From: a virus
Lineage: Duplodnaviria > Caudoviricetes
Virus record (IMG/VR): IMGVR_UViG_2816332336_000005
Location: 41,176-105,175 of that record
Length of the DNA: 64,000 nucleotides
Reading direction: 5' to 3' (one strand)
Of this stretch, positions 26,911-51,865 are shown in pieces (within the stretch, counting starts at the first letter, position 1; each line of letters starts with the position of its first letter). The notes beneath the pieces were generated by a model. It was not told where the DNA came from and searched no databases. It saw only the letters and a program-made list of their open reading frames with translations. A program made the translations under genes and the position numbers.

Positions 26911-27321
26911 TGACCGTCTTCTCTCACGCATTCTCGCCATGTTATCGGCCGATCGTCTTCTTTCCGCATCACGTCCGGCAAGTCTTCGTTTATACTCTCG
27001 TTCTGCCTCCGGGTATCTCTCGAATAGCTCCTCTAGGCTCGATACGGGATCAACCGGAACGAACAACTTCTTCGCGCCGTCCATGTGGGTACGTAGTAAG
27101 CCATATTCCTCGAGGACATCTAAGTGTTCCCCCGTAGTCTTTGCGGTCTTCCCGTAATGGAAAGCGAGCGTGTCCACGTTAGGCCAAGCGTAGCCTTCCT
27201 CGACGTTGTAGTAATGCGTCAGTAGCCCGTAGAGTGTCGTCATCTCCGCCTTATACTTCGGCAGAAACGTGTAATAAAATAACATGAAATGCGGTGTCTT
27301 TACGAATCTTTCTCCGTTCAC
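26872..27321 (-). CDS. Winged-HTH (HTH_36-like) replication initiator-type protein
   Basis: LYGLL...GYAWPNVDTLA......LDVLEEYGLL motif; iterons at its 3' end. Confidence 0.7.
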   Translation of the reverse strand: MNGERFVKTPHFMLFYYTFLPKYKAEMTTLYGLLTHYYNVEEGYAWPNVDTLAFHYGKTAKTTGEHLDVLEEYGLLRTHMDGAKKLFVPVDPVSSLEELFERYPEAEREYKRRLAGRDAERRRSADNMARMRERRRSESVTVNFTGTLQ

Positions 27322-27351
27322 TTAACGTCACATCCCTATATAATTTTCGAC

Positions 27352-27567
27352 TTAACCTTGTGGCTTATTACGTTCGTACTCCGCGAGAGAGCCGTCTAGC
27401 TTATCGTCGCGTCGGTATTGCCAGAACTTACGGAGTGTTTTTTCGTGAAGGCCCGAGCAGATATATCGCAGACCCTTACGTTTCAAGAACTCGTACAGAT
27501 TAGGGGAATAGCAATAAAAATACTCACGGGAATTATCCTCGTGAGCTCTCGTCAGTGATCCGTTCAT
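27352..27567 (-). CDS. Conserved phage hypothetical protein
   Basis: YFYCYS..L..FLK.KG..YI...H..T...FW.Y pattern common in Firmicutes phages. Confidence 0.6.
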   Translation of the reverse strand: MNGSLTRAHEDNSREYFYCYSPNLYEFLKRKGLRYICSGLHEKTLRKFWQYRRDDKLDGSLAEYERNKPQG

Positions 27568-27823
27568 TTACCGTCACCTTCCGTATGGGATTTAATGTAT
27601 CAAGAACCATTGCGCCGATTTGATAGTGCGATCTGTATATAAATAAACCTCGAAGCCAGTCGCAAATCTGGGGCGTAATAATATCTGCAAATTCCTTTCG
27701 CCAGTCATCCGGCATACCTCGTAAGTAATCGACATTGTAGCCGCGATCTTCTATGAACAGTTCGATTGTCCTGACCGTAGTAAAATTATGTTCTTTAATG
27801 CCGCCATAGTTCAGAGATAACAC
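27533..27823 (-). CDS. Hypothetical protein (possible CTG start at 27814)
   Basis: ORF with GGAGG RBS. Confidence 0.55.
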   Translation of the reverse strand: MLSLNYGGIKEHNFTTVRTIELFIEDRGYNVDYLRGMPDDWRKEFADIITPQICDWLRGLFIYRSHYQIGAMVLDTLNPIRKVTVNERITDESSRG

Positions 27824-27830
27824 CCTCCCG

Positions 27831-28031
27831 TTAGCCTATTCGGAACACTAGCGTAATACCAATCGGAGCGTTCGCTTTAATGTATTCGATGGCCTGTAGA
27901 CGCGGCTCCTCTTCGCCGATTACGGAAACGACAAGTCTGCCCGGACGTGATGAGTATAGGTACGTATGCACGCAGAAACGTTCGCCTACCTCGTTATACC
28001 ATTCTCGTGAGCCTGTAACCGTCAATTGCAA
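27831..28031 (-). CDS. Hypothetical protein
   Basis: ORF with AGGAGG RBS. Confidence 0.55.
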   Translation of the reverse strand: MQLTVTGSREWYNEVGERFCVHTYLYSSRPGRLVVSVIGEEEPRLQAIEYIKANAPIGITLVFRIG

Positions 28032-28043
28032 CGACCTCCTATA

Positions 28044-28073
28044 AAATAGAAAAAGCCGCCGGAATTGGCGACT
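28044..28073 (-). terminator. Terminator closing the mini-peptide cassette
   Basis: AGTCGCC-AATTCC-GGCGGCT stem then TTTTCTATTTT. Confidence 0.75.
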
Positions 28074-28127
28074 CTCGATTAGTTACTTACTCATATGGTC
28101 CGCGTACATCGTGGTAAATGCGGCTAC

Positions 28128-28184
28128 TTACCAGCCGATTCCACCGTGATCAAAACGACGCTTATTCCAATCTGGTTCTGCCAT
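28128..28184 (-). CDS. Mini-peptide 6: MAEPDWNKRRFDHGGIGW (18 aa)
   Basis: AAAGGAG RBS, ATG and TAA; manual translation. Confidence 0.8.
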   Translation of the reverse strand: MAEPDWNKRRFDHGGIGW

Positions 28185-28201
28185 ATCGTACACTCCTTTG
28201 C

Positions 28202-28279
28202 TTAGTGACCGGGGTCATCGACGTAGCCCGGGTCGTCCGTATTGCAATTACGCTGTACCGCCCATTCTGATTCGGTCAT
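28202..28279 (-). CDS. Mini-peptide 5: MTESEWAVQRNCNTDDPGYVDDPGH (25 aa)
   Basis: GGAGGAGG RBS; manual translation. Confidence 0.82.
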   Translation of the reverse strand: MTESEWAVQRNCNTDDPGYVDDPGH

Positions 28280-28298
28280 ATTGCGAGCCTCCTCCGTT

Positions 28299-28370
28299 TT
28301 AGTAGCCGGGATCGTCGATCCAAACAACGATACCTTGCGGATTATCAACCCAATTCTTATCGTAAACCAT
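28299..28370 (-). CDS. Mini-peptide 4: MVYDKNWVDNPQGIVVWIDDPGY (23 aa)
   Basis: GGGAGG RBS; manual translation. Confidence 0.8.
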   Translation of the reverse strand: MVYDKNWVDNPQGIVVWIDDPGY

Positions 28371-28387
28371 ATCGGTTCCTCCCTCAT

Positions 28388-28444
28388 TTAATGACCCGCA
28401 TCGTCTAGCCAACCGGGGTCAAAAATCCAATCTGGTTCCGTCAT
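28388..28444 (-). CDS. Mini-peptide 3: MTEPDWIFDPGWLDDAGH (18 aa)
   Basis: GAGGAGG RBS; manual translation. Confidence 0.82.
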   Translation of the reverse strand: MTEPDWIFDPGWLDDAGH

Positions 28445-28462
28445 AGAAAATCCCTCCTCGGT

Positions 28463-28501
28463 TTAATGACCGGGATCATAGTGCCATTCTGGATTAGTCA
28501 T
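28463..28501 (-). CDS. Mini-peptide 2: MTNPEWHYDPGH (12 aa)
   Basis: TAAGGAGGT RBS; manual translation. Confidence 0.8.
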   Translation of the reverse strand: MTNPEWHYDPGH

Positions 28502-28522
28502 GTCGTGTAACCTCCTTAAATA

Positions 28523-28621
28523 CTAATGCCCCGGGTTGTCGGTCCACTTCGGTCCTGCGTCCCAATTAGGGTCTGTGCAGCATTTCCACTCCGGAAAGCT
28601 CTCGAAAACTATTTTCATCAT
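28523..28621 (-). CDS. Mini-peptide 1: MMKIVFESFPEWKCCTDPNWDAGPKWTDNPGH (32 aa)
   Basis: AAGGAGGTG RBS; manual translation. Confidence 0.82.
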   Translation of the reverse strand: MMKIVFESFPEWKCCTDPNWDAGPKWTDNPGH

Positions 28622-28642
28622 ATCCACCTCCTTGCCTACATC

Positions 28643-28670
28643 TTTCGACAAGAAGATTTCTAATTCCTTC
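28643..28670 (-). promoter_or_regulatory. Sigma-H-type promoter for the mini-peptide cassette
   Basis: GAAGGAATT-N12-GTCGAAA versus sigma-H consensus RNAGGAWWW-N11/12-RNNGAAT. Confidence 0.6.
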
Positions 28671-28680
28671 CAAACGTGCA

Positions 28681-28706
28681 AAAAGCCGCCGGTTTTCCGA
28701 CGACTA
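28681..28706 (-). terminator. Terminator after hydrophobic peptide B
   Basis: AGTCGTCGG-AAAA-CCGGCGGCT stem then TTTT. Confidence 0.7.
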
Positions 28707-28790
28707 ATTGCGTTTCTTCACGGCTTGTACCAACGCGGTGATCGAGATGACCAACGCTATCACCGCGATTACCAATGTAATAGTTTCCAC
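28704..28790 (-). CDS. Small hydrophobic peptide B (28 aa, METITLVIAVIALVISITALVQAVKKRN), type I toxin-like
   Basis: GGAGG RBS, GTG start, single TM plus basic tail. Confidence 0.7.
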   Translation of the reverse strand: METITLVIAVIALVISITALVQAVKKRN

Positions 28791-28806
28791 GGTTCCGACG
28801 CCTCCG

Positions 28807-28835
28807 TTGACTATAGAGTATATCGAGGGTATGAT
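28807..28835 (+). promoter_or_regulatory. Sigma-A promoter for an antisense sRNA
   Basis: TTGACT-N17-TATGAT. Confidence 0.75.
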
Positions 28836-28841
28836 TGGAAT

Positions 28842-28929
28842 AAGATGATAGGGAAGGAAGGAAGCCGATAAGCTTCCGACCCTCTGATGCGCGACCTCTT
28901 ACGCCACGAACGTAAGGGGTCTTTACTTT
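28842..28929 (+). ncRNA. Putative antitoxin/antisense sRNA
   Basis: Promoter upstream; internal hairpin GGAAGC-CGATAA-GCTTCC; terminator GACCTCTTACG...CGTAAGGGGTC-TTT; no credible ORF; antisense to the mRNA between the two hydrophobic peptides. Confidence 0.6.
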
Positions 28930-29024
28930 AGGTTTCGGCTGTTTTGCCTGCCATTGCGATAATTAACTACCGCAGTTGCCAAGTTCACCAGCGCAGTCAC
29001 CAGTAGTACGACCTCTACCATCAT
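28923..29024 (-). CDS. Small hydrophobic peptide A (33 aa, MMVEVVLLVTALVNLATAVVNYRNGRQNSRNLK), type I toxin-like
   Basis: AAGGAGG RBS; TM helix plus basic tail; upstream TTGATA-N17-TATCCT promoter. Confidence 0.72.
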   Translation of the reverse strand: MMVEVVLLVTALVNLATAVVNYRNGRQNSRNLK

Positions 29025-29167
29025 CCGTCCTCCTTCTCATTTATTGGAAGGTATGGAAATCACACCCTCTACAAGAAGGATATCATGATACTCCTATAGT
29101 ATCAATAACTTTCTGAAGCTTCTGCCGTTCTAAAGTTTTTGCTATTATGTTTGTGGAGGTGTTCGCG

Positions 29168-29380
29168 TTGCAAATCCGGGTAAAACTTGACGCTATCTTA
29201 AAAGAACGTGGGATCACTCAACGAGAGTTCTCCCGCATGACAAATATTCGATTCCCTACCATAAACGGCATGTGTAAAAATGAGACTCAGCGTTTGCAAC
29301 TCGATAACCTTGCGAAGATATGCGAAGTGCTTGGCGTTGAGATTACGGATGTACTCGAGCTTGTGGATGAACGTCTCTAG
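29168..29380 (+). CDS. Cro/C1-type HTH protein (HTH_26-like)
   Basis: LKERGITQREFSRMTNIRFPTINGMC...LAKICEVLGVEITDVLE. Confidence 0.85.
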   Translation: MQIRVKLDAILKERGITQREFSRMTNIRFPTINGMCKNETQRLQLDNLAKICEVLGVEITDVLELVDERL

Positions 29381-29416
29381 CATGCATAGATACGAAACCT
29401 CCCAAAACGAACCCCC

Positions 29417-29869
29417 TTACGCAATAAAATAGCTCTTGACTTCGCTCGCCTTTATGTCCCTTGCGTACTGTTCTTGTCTCGCCTTATTGCGTATCTTAGC
29501 GTTGTTATCTACGAATTGCATTTCGTAAGGGCTGCGTCTTCTGCGCGAAGGTTTCCGGTAAGAGATTCCGTCCGTCCCTGTATCCTCTACTATTTTAAGC
29601 GAGGTCTCACCGCCCATACCGGAACCTCGTCGCTTGTGTTTTCCGAGTGTTCGGCGGGCGTATTGTGTCGCGGATAGAATCGGATATTCATGGTGGGTCA
29701 TTTTATGTTCGTCATCATCCGTGAGCTCTTCGTAGAGTATCGCGTCTGCTAGGCGTTCAAGCTCGCCGGAGTCTGGCCTATTATCCGTACGTAGGATTAC
29801 TTCATCTATCCACTCGCAAATAGCTGCTATTCGGTCGGTTCGTTCCATTTTTACCCATTCCATCATCAT
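29417..29869 (-). CDS. Conserved phage hypothetical protein
   Basis: LERLADAILYEEL...EYPILS motif; coupled to the sigma region-4 gene. Confidence 0.6.
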   Translation of the reverse strand: MMMEWVKMERTDRIAAICEWIDEVILRTDNRPDSGELERLADAILYEELTDDDEHKMTHHEYPILSATQYARRTLGKHKRRGSGMGGETSLKIVEDTGTDGISYRKPSRRRRSPYEMQFVDNNAKIRNKARQEQYARDIKASEVKSYFIA

Positions 29870-30234
29870 GCTGCCTCCTCACCGTAATTCCATATCTCAT
29901 AGACCTTCGCTATTCGTTCCAATCCATTTCTTACGCGTAATCCGGCTTTTTGAGGGCTGATGCCCATAGCCTTTCCCGTCTCAACAGTGTCTAACTCCCG
30001 TTCATAAACGTAATACAACGCCTCACGCTCCCGATCTGTCAGCCCCGCCCGTTCGATCGCCTCCGCCAGATCAATCAACACGTCACACGCCGCGTAGTCG
30101 CCCCGTTCGAACCGGCTGGCCCGTAAATGGTGGATGTCGCGTAGGATTGCGTGTACGCCGTCGCGGTCATTTAACGCATACCTTACGGAAAGATTGCGGT
30201 GTCCCTTTTCGATATCTACGGCACATGCGCCCAT
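29866..30234 (-). CDS. Sigma-70 region-4-like HTH regulator (possible late-gene activator)
   Basis: AGLTDREREALYYVY...GKAMGIS...GLERIA; last regulator before the packaging module. Confidence 0.75.
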   Translation of the reverse strand: MGACAVDIEKGHRNLSVRYALNDRDGVHAILRDIHHLRASRFERGDYAACDVLIDLAEAIERAGLTDREREALYYVYERELDTVETGKAMGISPQKAGLRVRNGLERIAKVYEIWNYGEEAA

Positions 30235-31451
30235 TAAGCCGCCTCCTTTATCGTATTCCCCTCGTAATACCCCGCTACAATCCGATCCGCCCATCCGAAG
30301 TCCCACGTACTATTACCGTCAATCTCCTCGCCCGCGCCGAGTGTCAGTTCGTTCCACCGGTAAGGTCCGTCGGCATACGTTCGGGCCCCGTCTCTGTATC
30401 CATCACAGTAACCGTTACCGTGCGAGAAGAAAAACGCCTCGTTACCCTTGCCGCTCCCGTGCCAACTCGGAATATGCGGGTACAAGTTCTCGCGCATCAG
30501 ACCATCATCCGTAAAGTCCACGAGCAGATCGTCCAGTTGTGCCGCCTCAGTTCGTTGCCCTTTCGCATCCAACCCAATGTCCGTCACCACCGCGAAATAG
30601 GACGGAGGCTGTCCGGCTAGGAACCGCGCATCGTGTTGCGTAATAGCGACGTCTCCCCCACGCTTAAAGCTCGATCTCCATCGTTTAGTCGCGGGTTCAA
30701 TTAACGGAGTATCAGGTGGCCCCTTCCGTAATATCAATATCTGTGTTTCTATTGTCGTCCCTACGTGTTGGAACGTCTCGCCCGGCAGGTGGATCGTGGC
30801 AATATGCCAGCAAGTTTCGTGCATGTATTTACGGATTTTTGCGGAATACTGTGCGTACGAAATACCCATTGGTAGGACGAATGCAATATAACCGCCGGGC
30901 TTTACGGCTTTGATAGCGAGTTCGAGAAATACGTTCTCGGACTTACCGCGGTATTTGCCCTTCGACTTGGATAGCGTCGTAAAATCGTCACGTTCCGTCT
31001 CCAACGTCAGCCCATACGGTGGGTTACCAATGACTATATCGTAGTAGTCGCGTCTCTCATGTAGCAACGCGTCCGCATTGATCACGTTCACATGCGGGTA
31101 AATGAGCTTCGTCACCTTCGCACTCGTTTCGTCGAGCTCGAGCGCTGTAATTTCGCAATCCGGCGGAATGTGTTCGAGAAATACACCGGAGCCGGCTGAC
31201 GGTTCGAGGACACGCATACTGCTCGTTAGTCCACCAGACAATCCCGCAATCGCCTCGACCACGAACCGCGCTACGTGCGTCGGCGTAAAGAAAGCACCAC
31301 CGGAGAATGCGTTCGGTAAGAGACCGCCTGCCGACGTGTAGTTTTCGCGTAGGAACTGGACGTCTTCCTCCGTTATCTCTTCGGGTGGCTTCGCTACTAT
31401 CGCCATTGAGCGTACGTTACCTTCCCAACGTTTGCGGTCGGCTTTTCCCAA
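30234..31451 (-). CDS. N6-adenine DNA methyltransferase (orphan)
   Basis: FFTP, VLEPSAGSG (motif I) and IGNPPY (motif IV). Confidence 0.88.
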   Translation of the reverse strand: MGKADRKRWEGNVRSMAIVAKPPEEITEEDVQFLRENYTSAGGLLPNAFSGGAFFTPTHVARFVVEAIAGLSGGLTSSMRVLEPSAGSGVFLEHIPPDCEITALELDETSAKVTKLIYPHVNVINADALLHERRDYYDIVIGNPPYGLTLETERDDFTTLSKSKGKYRGKSENVFLELAIKAVKPGGYIAFVLPMGISYAQYSAKIRKYMHETCWHIATIHLPGETFQHVGTTIETQILILRKGPPDTPLIEPATKRWRSSFKRGGDVAITQHDARFLAGQPPSYFAVVTDIGLDAKGQRTEAAQLDDLLVDFTDDGLMRENLYPHIPSWHGSGKGNEAFFFSHGNGYCDGYRDGARTYADGPYRWNELTLGAGEEIDGNSTWDFGWADRIVAGYYEGNTIKEAA

Positions 31452-41056: not shown

Positions 41057-41647
41057 TTACGCCACCTCCACGATTTTCGCCCCGTAAGGTACGTATTTCA
41101 ACGGCCGATCCGGTGCATTTACGACTACATTCCGATAATCAATTCCACGGTAATCTGCAATCGGTTTTAGTTTACGGAAGATCTCGATTGTGGCGAGTAC
41201 ATCGTTCATCGCACGATGGTGTCCGTTTAACTCGATGCCATATCGGGCACATACGTCTTTTAATGAAGCTGATTCCGTGGGCGCTACGAGCTTGGCGAGC
41301 GATCGAGTGCAGACGAACTTTTCAAGGAACATAACGCGTCCAGTAACAAACGATAGGTCGAATGGGGCATTGTGAGCAACGACCGTAGTATCAGCGAAAA
41401 ATTTACCTAACGCACTGGTAGCGAAGAAACTGTGAGTGCCACCGTGCAAATCTCTCTCTGTGATACCCGTCAGTTCCACGATAAAGTTTGGTAATTCGCG
41501 TCCCTCATCGAGCTGCACAAACGTCTGGAACCGTCCGTACTCCCGTTCTAAATCCGTTCTGATCGCGGCAACTTCGATAATTTGATCGTTCTCGTGGTCG
41601 AGTCCCGTCGTTTCCAGGTCAATGAACGTGTAGATTTCGCCCATCAA
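41057..41647 (-). CDS. DEDDh 3'-5' exonuclease (DnaQ-like)
   Basis: DLETTG, AHNAPFD and HRAMND motifs. Confidence 0.92.
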   Translation of the reverse strand: MMGEIYTFIDLETTGLDHENDQIIEVAAIRTDLEREYGRFQTFVQLDEGRELPNFIVELTGITERDLHGGTHSFFATSALGKFFADTTVVAHNAPFDLSFVTGRVMFLEKFVCTRSLAKLVAPTESASLKDVCARYGIELNGHHRAMNDVLATIEIFRKLKPIADYRGIDYRNVVVNAPDRPLKYVPYGAKIVEVA

Positions 41648-42642
41648 GCCGCCTCCTTATCGAGTATCGAGGTGATTTGTTCGAACGCGACGATATACGA
41701 TCGTTTCTTCCACTCAGGCATTCGCGACCTACGTACCATCGCCACTTGTCGTTCCAATTCATCGTATTCTTCGGCACTCAACGAAAGGGCGCACGCTGTC
41801 TTGAAGTTGTTAAACGTCCACTTTTCGAGGTCAAGCTTCGGTGGCCGACCCTCTTTCGATCGGACAACTATGTCCAGCAATTCGTCTCGAAGTCCGATCC
41901 GATCTTGATCCATAATAGTCACGTGGAACACTCGTAAATCAGGCTTGGCCGCGTATTCCTCATCCGTCAGTACCCAGTTAGCTTTAGACGCGTTCACATA
42001 CACGATAAGATAGTCGTCTAACGGCATTTCGGCTGTCCCGTACATTTCCGTATAGCCGACGCATTGAGCAACGTGCTTAGCTTCCGGCTCGGTCATCGAG
42101 TGCGGACTCGTCTTGGCTGCGGTTGATTGTTTCGACTTGATTTCGAGTCCCACGCGACGTCCGTCTTTGTATCGGAGGATTCCGTCAGGCTTTCCGTAGA
42201 GGGCGAAGCGTTGGCCGCCGTGATCCATTACGTGTAATTTCTGCGCGAAATCCTCCCACATTGGCAAGCCGTCCGGTGTACGTTCAACTGTGAACGGCGG
42301 CGCCTCCCCGAGAGTACGCTCGTAATGCTTCTCGATGAATAGTAGATCGCGTTGTATTACGTCACCGATTGCGGTACCGAGTCGTGTCCAGCGTCCTTGG
42401 TGCGGAGGTCGCGGTTGGATATCCTTCTTGGCTCCGCGTAGCTTCTCGTATAGCTCGCGTTTGTCAGCGTTAGCGCTAGACGGCGAAAAATACGGCTGGG
42501 CTCGAAAGTTGAAAAACGGACGGGTACGGAGGGCTTTCGCTTTCTGTTCGGAGATTAACGCGTCAAGTTCGTTGTCCCAAACCTCAGGCGCAGAGTGCCA
42601 TCGGTCAAGCATCGTTTTGAAATCATCGGCTAGTTGTGAGAT
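41644..42642 (-). CDS. PD-(D/E)XK (Cas4/RecB-like) phage exonuclease; probable ATC start
   Basis: FSPSS, GKPDGIL, LEIKS and Q...Y motifs. Confidence 0.8.
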   Translation of the reverse strand: MSQLADDFKTMLDRWHSAPEVWDNELDALISEQKAKALRTRPFFNFRAQPYFSPSSANADKRELYEKLRGAKKDIQPRPPHQGRWTRLGTAIGDVIQRDLLFIEKHYERTLGEAPPFTVERTPDGLPMWEDFAQKLHVMDHGGQRFALYGKPDGILRYKDGRRVGLEIKSKQSTAAKTSPHSMTEPEAKHVAQCVGYTEMYGTAEMPLDDYLIVYVNASKANWVLTDEEYAAKPDLRVFHVTIMDQDRIGLRDELLDIVVRSKEGRPPKLDLEKWTFNNFKTACALSLSAEEYDELERQVAMVRRSRMPEWKKRSYIVAFEQITSILDKEAA

Positions 42643-50394: not shown

Positions 50395-50538
50395 CTACCA
50401 ACCTCCTCCAACTATTCTGGAAGTTACATATGCCACGCTCTCTTCTGATCCATTATCATAAGTAAACTGTTCTGCCTGTGTTGGCTGAGTAAATAAAACG
50501 GAGACAATTGCTACTAAAGTAACCATAAATGCTTTCAT
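50395..50538 (-). CDS. Secreted signalling propeptide, AimP-like (47 aa: MKAFMVTLVAIVSVLFTQPTQAEQFTYDNGSEESVAYVTSRIVGGGW)
   Basis: Not in ORF track; starts 1 nt after the receptor stop; signal peptide ending TQA, acidic linker, Gly-rich C-terminus ending GGGW. Confidence 0.85.
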   Translation of the reverse strand: MKAFMVTLVAIVSVLFTQPTQAEQFTYDNGSEESVAYVTSRIVGGGW

Positions 50539-50539
50539 T

Positions 50540-51865
50540 CTAATTCGCCCCTTTTAAAATATTCAAATATCTATGTTCAACGTCCTCTCCTAAAATAGCC
50601 TTATGTTCGAAGAGGATCGCGGACATTTTTTGATATACGGAAATATCTCTGAACTCTAGTGCTGTTTTAATGACCTCGAGAACATCGTTGAATGCTTCTT
50701 TATACTGCTCCATAGCTAGATAATACTGTAATCTAACAACTTGAAAATTATAAAACTGACTCTTATTGTACTTATCCTTCTTTAATGCGACTGACTCAAA
50801 GATCGCGTTATATTTCTCTAAAAAAACACCAATTCTCTCTAGCTGTCCGTTTGAAAGTAATATCTTCAGCGCGTATGGAGCTACCGTAATAATTTCATGT
50901 TCGCGATTCTTATCTACAACCAGTCGGATAAACTCACTTACCGCTTCTAGCTTACCTTCCATTACTTCGATTAACTTTTCATTCGACAACGCCGCCCAAC
51001 GGTAGTAATCACCTAGGTTGTGGCATTCCCGGAGAAGTTCTGCCGCCTTTCTGAGTTCACCCATTCCTATTAAACTTGCTGCTTGGTAAAGAAGCGACTC
51101 CCCTAGATGTTTGATATCTTTGGCGTCCTTTGCCTCTTTATAGTACGCATCTGCTACAACAGAAAGTTCCTCCCACTCTTTGGTAACATTATACCAAGTA
51201 ACGACACGGTAGTATCCATCTAACTGTAGATTTACTGTTTCTGCAACACCATTTTTTTGAATGGGATATTCTGTCGGCAGGTCGTTCAATACTGCTCGTA
51301 ATTTATGTAATGCTTCTACACCCTTCTTACGCATATCTCGATCGCGTTCAATCAAGAAAATTCGATGGCAGCAAATCGCATACCTTTCTGATATTTTCTT
51401 TTCGATGTTTGTAATTGCGTAATATACAGACGCGGCCTCTGCTAGAAAGCCATAACCGAAAAGTGTCTCTGCAAAAGCTAAGGCGGTGGACATATCCTTT
51501 ATATCTATTGTTTCCAAGAATAACTCGACTACTTTACTGCAATGACTGACACCTTGCTTACAGTGAGAGCATGCCTTAATAAAATCTGTTACTTTGGGAA
51601 GAGAAACTTTGGACGAGTCCTTGAAAAGCTCTCCATAAATCATTCCATAAAAAAAATCGGCGTCTAGTCTGAACACGTGTGTCAATAAATCTACCTGGTC
51701 CATCGTAATCGCTTGCTTGTTCTTCATAATATAAGAAAGCGATTGGGGAGAGATATACAACAATTTAGCTAGGTCTCTTTGACTAAGATTATGTGAATGC
51801 ATTTGGATTAGTATTTCTTCCCTTAATTTAAGACGATAATAAGTCAAGTCACTGGTGTCGATCAT
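50540..51865 (-). CDS. RRNPP-family peptide receptor (AimR/AloR-like; XRE HTH plus TPR-like helical domain)
   Basis: N-terminal HTH (LSQRDLAKLLYISPQSLSYIMK), ~350-aa all-helical remainder, immediately followed by a propeptide gene. Confidence 0.85.
   Translation of the reverse strand: MIDTSDLTYYRLKLREEILIQMHSHNLSQRDLAKLLYISPQSLSYIMKNKQAITMDQVDLLTHVFRLDADFFYGMIYGELFKDSSKVSLPKVTDFIKACSHCKQGVSHCSKVVELFLETIDIKDMSTALAFAETLFGYGFLAEAASVYYAITNIEKKISERYAICCHRIFLIERDRDMRKKGVEALHKLRAVLNDLPTEYPIQKNGVAETVNLQLDGYYRVVTWYNVTKEWEELSVVADAYYKEAKDAKDIKHLGESLLYQAASLIGMGELRKAAELLRECHNLGDYYRWAALSNEKLIEVMEGKLEAVSEFIRLVVDKNREHEIITVAPYALKILLSNGQLERIGVFLEKYNAIFESVALKKDKYNKSQFYNFQVVRLQYYLAMEQYKEAFNDVLEVIKTALEFRDISVYQKMSAILFEHKAILGEDVEHRYLNILKGAN

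Follow-up and report, generated by a model that had tools for sequence, protein, structure and literature searches.

Tandem leaderless mini-genes of a Brevibacillus phage share hexapeptide units with receptor-adjacent signal propeptides: a candidate array of forged quorum-sensing ligands

Known peptide signaling systems and the phage cassette

Phages carry peptide communication systems of their own and listen in on the signals of their hosts. The subject here is a cassette of six tandem mini-open reading frames (mini-ORFs) in a Brevibacillus phage, the products of which contain units that recur as C-terminal hexapeptides of signal propeptides. The cassette lies in a stretch of 64,000 nucleotides (nt), called the window below, which covers positions 41,176 to 105,175 of the 105-kb IMG/VR provirus record IMGVR_UViG_2816332336_000005. 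It is probably an insulated operon of leaderless mini-genes that forges host Alo-type signals, and one signal of a rival phage, as receptor ligands.

Several described systems come close to the cassette. For the Alo systems of Paenibacillaceae (RRNPP family), mature peptides of six amino acids (aa) and downstream spo0E-like genes are reported, and Brevibacillus is named among the genera that have them (Voichek et al., 2020; PMC7425212); PMC10075063 mentions a plasmid-borne AloR-AloP system of B. laterosporus. The cassette resembles AloR-AloP in that its units equal the C-terminal hexapeptides of propeptides that stand in Alo-type gene order. Like the AloP, Phr, and AimP propeptides, the mini-ORFs carry a mature signal of 5–6 aa, but they have neither signal peptide nor pro-region and no adjacent cognate receptor. 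They also differ from AloR-AloP in fusing several signals per product, in lying as six genes in tandem, and in being phage-borne.

Leaderless communication peptides (LCPs; LCP/SIP-RopB) provide a precedent for an RRNPP-type ligand that is made directly in near-mature form, and share with the mini-ORFs ultrashort, leaderless ORFs led by a Shine-Dalgarno (SD) sequence, a likeness that for the mini-ORFs concerns sequence features (PMC10518010). LCPs are single, hydrophobic peptides of 8–10 aa with an adjacent receptor of the RopB clan, and are reported as not found in phages, whereas the mini-ORF peptides are acidic, Trp-rich, 12–32 aa long, multi-unit, and receptor-less.

Arbitrium (AimR-AimP; PMC13220667; bioRxiv 10.1101/2021.07.15.452460) is resembled by the receptor-propeptide pairs that the window phage and Brevibacillus phage Emery possess. 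In arbitrium and other phage RRNPP systems a secreted propeptide is paired with a receptor, unlike the mini-ORFs, and in the literature found on these systems, which covers cross-talk between phages, no separate gene is described that duplicates the signal of a different phage without a leader. The mini-ORFs are no arbitrium modules, even if mini-ORF 6 has the signal of one. Tandemly duplicated pheromone propeptides (PMC11343458) also have more than one signal copy per product, freed by proteolysis, but they are secreted and hold copies of their own signal, whereas the mini-ORFs mix the signals of several systems and have no secretion part. Precursor arrays of ribosomally synthesized and post-translationally modified peptides (RiPPs) have a co-located modifying enzyme, protease, or transporter, none of which was found at the cassette.

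No phage-encoded, receptor-less, leaderless array of host signals is described in the literature covered. The kind of signal is a known one, as the units of the cassette belong to the Alo/RRNPP repertoire.

The mini-ORF cassette

The six mini-ORFs start with ATG, are located on the minus strand between 28128 and 28621, and encode 32, 12, 18, 23, 25, and 18 aa. An SD sequence (GGAGG, GAGG, or AGGAG) lies at most 17 nt 5' of the ATG in all six, and the stop-to-ATG spacers are 21, 18, 17, 19, and 17 nt. The initial annotation of the window had described six tandem ORFs with individual SD sequences and spacers of 15–21 nt; all six are present on the minus strand, and the spacers measure 17–21 nt. 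A single interrupted gene is ruled out because the mini-ORFs use different frames.

Mini-ORF 1 (type A; 28621..28523; MMKIVFESFPEWKCCTDPNWDAGPKWTDNPGH, 32 aa) contains the unit ESFPEW, and mini-ORF 2 (type B; 28501..28463; MTNPEWHYDPGH, 12 aa) consists of MTNPEW and HYDPGH. Mini-ORF 3 (type C; 28444..28388; MTEPDWIFDPGWLDDAGH, 18 aa) is composed of MTEPDW, IFDPGW, and LDDAGH. Mini-ORF 4 (type D; 28370..28299; MVYDKNWVDNPQGIVVWIDDPGY, 23 aa) has an internal VDNPQG and ends in IDDPGY, and mini-ORF 5 (type E; 28279..28202; MTESEWAVQRNCNTDDPGYVDDPGH, 25 aa) is made up of MTESEW, the linker AVQRNCN, TDDPGY, and VDDPGH. The last one, mini-ORF 6 (type F; 28184..28128; MAEPDWNKRRFDHGGIGW, 18 aa), ends in HGGIGW.

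The products are acidic and rich in Asp, Pro, Gly, and Trp; in 49 peptides from arrays of this kind Asp makes up 14.8% and Leu 1.2% of the residues. A hydrophobic stretch such as that of the 40 host propeptides described below is absent from all six window products, and mini-ORFs 1, 4, and 5 match no Pfam or NCBIfam family at E ≤ 0.1. PHROGs, Pfam, and NCBIfam scans of the neighboring genes in the window detected no modifying enzyme, protease, or transporter. Peptide composition and family scans therefore agree with the earlier statement that the products have no signal peptide and that no modifying enzyme or transporter is adjacent.

Receptor-propeptide pairs in host-clade genomes and phages

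The repertoire of host signals was obtained from three host-clade genomes, each a species representative, and is under-sampled. A pattern for ORFs ending in DPGx and a stop matched 9, 15, and 20 times in these genomes, compared with 3, 3, and 6 matches of the control. Matches outside arrays are the ends of signal-peptide ORFs of 40–50 aa that adjoin ORFs of approximately 370–455 aa (about 430 aa) directly upstream. The HTH_3 domain scored above the Pfam cut-off in 8 of 10 upstream ORFs tested, and TPR families below the cut-off only. A receptor profile found 12, 23, and 27 matches in the three genomes, and its homology to the phage receptors, that of the window phage included, extends along the entire protein (hhalign probability 97.6%, E 3e-12). 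Directly downstream of the receptor, a signal-peptide ORF is present in 50 of 64 receptor locus ids; after four mis-picked loci had been dropped, 40 distinct propeptides with 28 distinct C-terminal hexapeptides were obtained. PDB profile searches with the receptors returned matches to the HTH part and weak consensus-TPR matches only. For the receptor of locus L136 the structure neighbors, taken as leads only, are HTH/TPR proteins, and one feature neighbor belongs to an AimR-family cluster (0.93).

Small ORFs downstream of these pairs are Spo0E-like above the cut-off in all three tested, and six larger ones encode a response regulator, a HAD hydrolase, three peptidases, and one protein without match. 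In L132, L136, and L140, secreted peptidase genes (Peptidase_C39_2, M23, M10-like) stand in place of the Spo0E-like gene; the downstream peptidases are possible targets of the system or candidates for propeptide maturation. Tandem receptors occur in G001, G042, and G043 (L093/L094 with L068/L070/L072), where the propeptide of the Alo-type receptor ends in DYDPGY and the second, more distant receptor of 467–477 aa has a propeptide ending in EHGVGG or THGVGG.

The window phage has an HTH receptor-like protein of 441 aa (51865..50540, minus strand), in which a Pfam scan found HTH_3 only, and directly after it a signal-peptide propeptide of 47 aa (50538..50395, minus strand) that ends in IVGGGW, the GGGW end noticed in the initial annotation. 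A search for propeptide homologs returned one match, and the gene at 50540–51865 is the only receptor-like gene of the 105-kb record. In Emery, the receptor gp60 is followed by gp61, a signal-peptide ORF of 43 aa with HGGIGW twice. The pair is located in the immunity region of each of the two phages. Exact hexamer tandem repeats are seen in other phage propeptides as well (NVGEHG twice, EDGPGW twice), and since the repeated unit is a hexamer, a signal length of six residues is inferred.

Brevibacillus phage SecTim467 (L087, KT151957.1, 66136–70239) encodes gp69, a "putative DNA-binding protein" with 23% identity to Emery gp60 over 80% of the length. The gp69 gene stands directly after the annotated Spo0E gene gp70 and before gp68, an ORF of 45 aa without obvious signal peptide. 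Genes gp68–gp70 thus form a phage-borne, Spo0E-linked system of the kind treated in bioRxiv 10.1101/2021.07.15.452460.

Mini-ORF units match propeptide ends

Units of the window cassette recur at the ends of receptor-adjacent propeptides. HYDPGH of mini-ORF 2 is the exact C-terminal hexapeptide of host locus L136 (..NHYDPGH), LDDAGH of mini-ORF 3 the exact end of L151 (..YLDDAGH), and the internal VDNPQG of mini-ORF 4 the exact C-terminal hexapeptide of L146/L149 (..YVDNPQG). ESFPEW of mini-ORF 1 corresponds to ..YSFPEW of L144, and MTEPDW of mini-ORF 3 has TEPDW in common with ..YITEPDW of L141. HGGIGW at the end of mini-ORF 6 is found exactly in Emery gp61, where it is repeated twice. Units of other arrays that are common to host ends include HDDPGH, HDDPGY, DYDPGY, VYDPGH, TGDPGH, and TAPDW (host STAPDW).

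The window ORFs contain four exact hexamers and nine exact C-terminal pentamers of 29 propeptide ends, and neither count was reached by any of 20000 within-ORF shuffles (means 0.001 for hexamers and 0.010 for pentamers). For the 13 signals not ending in DPG[HYFW], which are independent of the search pattern, three hexamers and five pentamers are present in the window (0/20000 shuffles). The 49 unique mini-ORF peptides of 11 arrays give 13 hexamer and 57 pentamer matches (0/5000 shuffles). Of the 28 distinct hexapeptides, nine recur exactly and 18 as pentamers in the 11 arrays, and a C-terminal 5-mer is common to phage mini-ORFs and 25 of the 40 distinct propeptides. Outside the last six residues of the propeptides only 2 of 1516 5-mers are shared, both from the internal HGGIGW copy of Emery gp61. 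The sharing is confined to the mature-signal end of the propeptides.

The exact 6-mer matches span 342 nucleotides, of which 64 differ; every difference is synonymous, and the flanks are unrelated. Identity has therefore been kept at the peptide level and does not reflect recent DNA transfer. The check proposed earlier, a comparison of propeptide C-termini beside HTH-TPR genes with DPGH, DPGY, DPGW, and DHGGIGW, thus turned out positive, with exact hexamers recurring, and the idea of RRNPP-ligand look-alikes is supported by these matches. Both rivals and the host had been named as targets: the main matches are to host-clade Alo-type ends, and a phage signal is matched by the last ORF (type F) only. 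The main targets thus appear to be the Alo-type systems of the host clade itself. As mini-ORF 6 carries the Emery hexapeptide, interference with the decision of another phage is conceivable on its sequence.

IVGGGW, the own signal of the window phage, is not represented in its cassette, and IVGGGW and NVGEHG are absent from all 11 arrays analyzed. Emery, the sole phage that uses HGGIGW, has no type-F ORF, and of seven further elements for which the own signal is known or was searched, six carry type F.

Among 30 distinct host heptamers, 18 have Tyr and 2 have Phe immediately ahead of the C-terminal hexapeptide. The equivalent phage position is occupied by W, F, Y, or H in 42 of the 57 pentamer matches and is the N-terminus in seven. 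Because the junction residues resemble the host Tyr/Phe, cleavage at the aromatic end of one unit could release the unit after it. To judge from MTEPDW and ITEPDW, a signal can have its first residue replaced by the start Met. Being concatemers, most products would need trimming.

Related arrays and coding-type selection

At least 13 related arrays are present in (pro)phages of the Brevibacillus laterosporus group, in Emery and at least 12 further loci. They consist of four to nine mini-ORFs of recurring types (A to F), with ORFs gained and lost. In blastn against 50,697 phage records Emery was the sole related record; in its array, which separates the lysis module from the lysogeny module, seven mini-ORFs of these kinds are present, and its annotation places two opposite-strand ORFs, gp37 and gp38, at the array and no modifying enzyme, protease, or transporter around it.

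Further searches used a loose pattern (SD, ATG, 7–17 codons, DPG[HYF], and stop), which in IMG/VR gave 42 stretches: five arrays, ten single short ORFs (e.g., MPRFKLVLDPGH), and 27 without filtered hit. Three of the 61 Brevibacillaceae genomes contained it (control 0) and supplied further arrays; at class level it hit 3 genomes out of 401, of which one looks like chance, and no array was added. A strict pattern matched a single contig among genome contigs, from B. laterosporus strain MSSRFCCT15, and in metagenome contigs found no arrays and one chance match in a high-GC contig. Additional arrays are those of the MSSRFCCT15 contig and of L083, and two more in G001. A homology search with the type-A ORF gave four matches, named "hypothetical protein" at most.

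In five ortholog groups (96 codons), 33, 16, and 50 sites are variable at codon positions 1, 2, and 3, which fits coding sequence under purifying selection. The GGIGW motif is invariant in six type-F genes despite synonymous changes. The claim of peptide-level conservation with divergent codons is borne out by this pattern and by the synonymous differences at the matches. Decay has affected some ORFs: a frameshift or fusion has altered type D in L050 (55 aa) and L045 (47–48 aa), and L040 has remnants such as MVDPGY. Decayed mini-ORFs show birth-and-death turnover within arrays. The earlier proposal to look for array conservation and unit turnover in related prophages is answered by the at least 13 arrays with ORFs gained, lost, and decayed.

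Three RNA-seq runs under the same species label had zero reads on the cassette at ≥85% likeness, and the strain of those runs evidently lacks the cassette, so that they do not bear on its expression; a related array is present in one DNA run of that label.

Outside the arrays, metagenomic viral contigs (L008, L021, L023, L027, L029, L037, L041, and L043) contain single SD-led ORFs of 12–14 aa ending in (I/L/V)DPGH, of which MPRFKLVLDPGH is an example, in a context unrelated to arrays. Three further metagenomic viral contigs (L082, L084, and L086) have the same stop-to-stop stretch of 10 codons, KDKTHGGIGW, ending in the Emery-type signal.

Bracketing signals

The initial annotation had placed the cassette between a promoter and a terminator. 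A terminator scan found an intrinsic-terminator-like hairpin with T run that closes the cassette (28076..28051, minus strand), so that this part stands; a scan for sigma-70-type promoters gave none for the minus strand directly 5' of mini-ORF 1, and alignment upstream of nine arrays revealed a conserved promoter-like box of 30 nt instead (GGAAGGAATTAGAAATCTTCTTGTCGAAAG; 28642..28671, minus strand). Within it the -10-like part (GTCGAAAGA) follows 12 nt after the -35-like part (GAAGGAATT), the two parts being read with the spacing rule of sigma-H promoters. Against the sigma-H consensus RNAGGAWWW / RNNGAATWW (PMC8510167), the -35-like part fits at 9 of 9 positions and the -10-like part at 5 of 7 defined positions. 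With at most two mismatches the box occurs six times in G000, G001, G042, and G043, in all six cases just upstream of arrays, and a control pattern does not occur (0). From its sequence and position we infer that the box acts as a sigma-H-like promoter.

A hairpin read from the sequence (GTCGTCGG-AAAA-CCGGCGGC followed by TTTTT; 28680..28704, minus strand) lies 5' of the box. It is kept in 8 of 10 aligned upstream regions and was not flagged by the terminator scan; it probably terminates the small membrane ORF ahead of it and acts as an insulator for the cassette.

Two candidates were rejected. The sigma factor of the window phage is not a required driver of the box, as Emery and the complete provirus G065 carry arrays and no homolog at E ≤ 0.01. 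An in-frame TTG extension of mini-ORF 1 (MSKDVGKEVD...) has its SD too distant, and variation among arrays in this stretch is non-synonymous only, at codon positions 1 and 2, which is non-coding-like and unlike the ORFs.

Rfam has no family at E ≤ 1 in window positions 27000–30000 and none at gathering scores in six related loci. In Emery (L001:4610–4745) a conserved non-coding element of about 135 nt separates the last mini-ORF from a hydrophobic ORF of 35–41 aa (MFDLLRSSINN...). It has homologs in L011, L018, L040, L048, and L051, is absent from the window, and forms a long hairpin with a possible anti-SD helix; its alignment fold has 30 pairs, one of them compensatory, and no Rfam match. 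The element may be a new cis-regulatory leader.

Possible functions of the cassette

Since both a secretion signal and a dedicated receptor gene are absent, the products are best read as forged ligands. Infected cells or lysogens would produce the mini-peptides; after a probable cleavage at the aromatic residues that join one unit to the next, the freed units would occupy cognate HTH-TPR receptors, presumably in the cytoplasm. Host outputs such as Spo0E-like phosphatase genes and secreted peptidases would thereby be uncoupled from real cell density, and the lysis-lysogeny switch of an Emery-type phage from real phage density. Spo0E-type phosphatases lower Spo0A~P. Altered sporulation is plausible, as each of three small ORFs tested in the downstream position at host loci is Spo0E-like. 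In P. polymyxa, according to PMC7425212, the peptide lowers expression of an AloR-activated spo0E-like gene. A cocktail of agonists would then mimic high density and favor Spo0A~P-dependent programs, and extended peptides acting as antagonists would have the opposite effect.

Several points weigh against forged ligands. The mini-genes are known from sequence alone, and those frameshifted, fused, or left as remnants in L040, L045, and L050 indicate that single units are dispensable. No receptor gene adjoins the cassette, the nearest being 22 kb away with a different signal, and the assignment of the receptors to RRNPP/Alo is based on architecture. For the window units TDPNW, DAGPKW, TDNPGH, and IFDPGW, the three sampled genomes yielded no counterpart at the hexamer level. 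The concatemers of 12–32 aa would need a processing enzyme, RRNPP pockets may reject N-terminally extended peptides, and the hexapeptide length of the signal in Brevibacillus is deduced from the repeat unit. That arrays avoid the signal of their own phage is suggestive, the case resting on one HGGIGW-using phage and not being statistically significant. For signals of the resident genome the matches amount to 1/39 (hexamers) and 8/39 (pentamers), and for those of the other two genomes to 5/78 and 17/78. As arrays match resident and non-resident signals alike, a simple jamming of the own host is not specifically supported; equal matching of self and non-self fits a pherotype "master key" or post-lysis action on neighbors as well as intracellular jamming.

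The master key, a mobile sigma-H-type operon that forges many host pherotypes and one rival-phage signal, with an arms race implied, is an elaboration towards which the data incline somewhat. Each leaderless mini-gene would concatenate two to five different host pherotype signals, the start Met replacing the first residue and the aromatic last residue doubling as the cleavage site of the next unit. Arrays would evolve by gain and loss of units and by point changes at those two specificity positions in which host signals also vary, so that diversification of Alo pherotypes would be set against phage signal libraries.

Action on neighbors is a rather unlikely account. Here the forged signals would act outside the producer, freed by phage lysis or an exporter (candidates being, e.g., the adjacent small membrane ORFs), cut after aromatic residues by those extracellular proteases which process host propeptides, and imported by neighbors via Opp, so that bystanders or competitor strains and their prophages would be manipulated. 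The cassette of the window phage lies at the early/late junction, directly before the packaging genes, many arrays are accompanied by small hydrophobic ORFs, and matches to non-resident signals are as frequent as those to resident signals. Residues at the junctions imitate the Tyr/Phe ahead of the hexapeptide of host propeptides, which are matured extracellularly (PMC7425212), and leaderless yet secreted peptides are known (LCP/SIP; PMC10518010). However, the products have no export signal and no transporter gene lies nearby; moreover, the box is sigma-H-like and not of late-phage type, and the Emery array is moron-like in its position between lysis and lysogeny modules, both of which fit expression in the lysogen. 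The concatemers with their protease-site-like junctions and many similar units per transcript would also suit decoy substrates that compete for the maturation protease, Opp, or cytoplasmic peptidases and quench signaling without receptor binding. This is improbable, as a junction or motif would suffice for a decoy and exact identity at the variable, specificity-determining positions of many signals would be unneeded; besides, cytoplasmic peptides would meet extracellular proteases only if released.

Tandem small precursor genes are common in RiPP loci, and Trp, Cys, and His are frequent modification sites. The mini-peptides could be RiPP precursors, or be bioactive in another way, with modification or use in trans, and their likeness to signals would reflect no more than descent from aloP-like 3' ends. 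The absence of a modifying enzyme, protease, or transporter near the window cassette and the Emery array, the absence of a leader/core organization, and the identity to unmodified signal ends held through synonymous divergence, needless for a RiPP core, make this very improbable. It is hardly credible, finally, that the cassette is a regulatory leader, RNA element, or group of decaying gene fragments that is untranslated or is translated with no peptide function. The opposite-strand gp37 and gp38 called by the Emery annotators and the decayed units would suit this, but a strong, uniformly spaced SD precedes every ORF in every array, the codon-position pattern is of coding type, Rfam gave no match, and the non-coding-like TTG stretch contrasts with the ORFs.

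If the reading of the cassette as an array of forged ligands is true, this would be the first virus forging a whole panel of bacterial peptide pheromones, with a bearing on sporulation control through Spo0E-linked Alo systems, on competition among strains that differ in pherotype, and on interference among temperate phages. If the peptides work as their sequences suggest, they represent viral molecular mimicry of bacterial quorum sensing. The matches give a directly testable hexapeptide-to-receptor map for a poorly studied clade, and tandem mini-genes under the usual gene-calling thresholds can hold a complete biological function. The screen of receptor-adjacent propeptide ends against SD-led phage mini-ORFs is transferable to phages of Paenibacillus, Bacillus, and Clostridium.

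Genomic neighborhood

The window phage is myovirus-like, with genes for tail sheath, tape measure, portal, terminase, ribonucleotide reductase, and methyltransferase. Neighbors of the cassette are small hydrophobic ORFs, an XRE protein of 77 aa, the phage sigma factor (29866–30306), and small proteins without known family. The hydrophobic ORF of 28 aa (METITLVIAV...; 28704..28790, minus strand) is also found upstream of the arrays in L018, L032, L042, and L045. A second one, of 33 aa (28926–29024, minus strand), lies upstream of the cassette, and both have sub-threshold Pfam matches only. In the early region, a protein of 322 aa (41644–42612, minus strand) matches phrog_1706, "CRISPR/Cas system associated" (E 1.6e-52).

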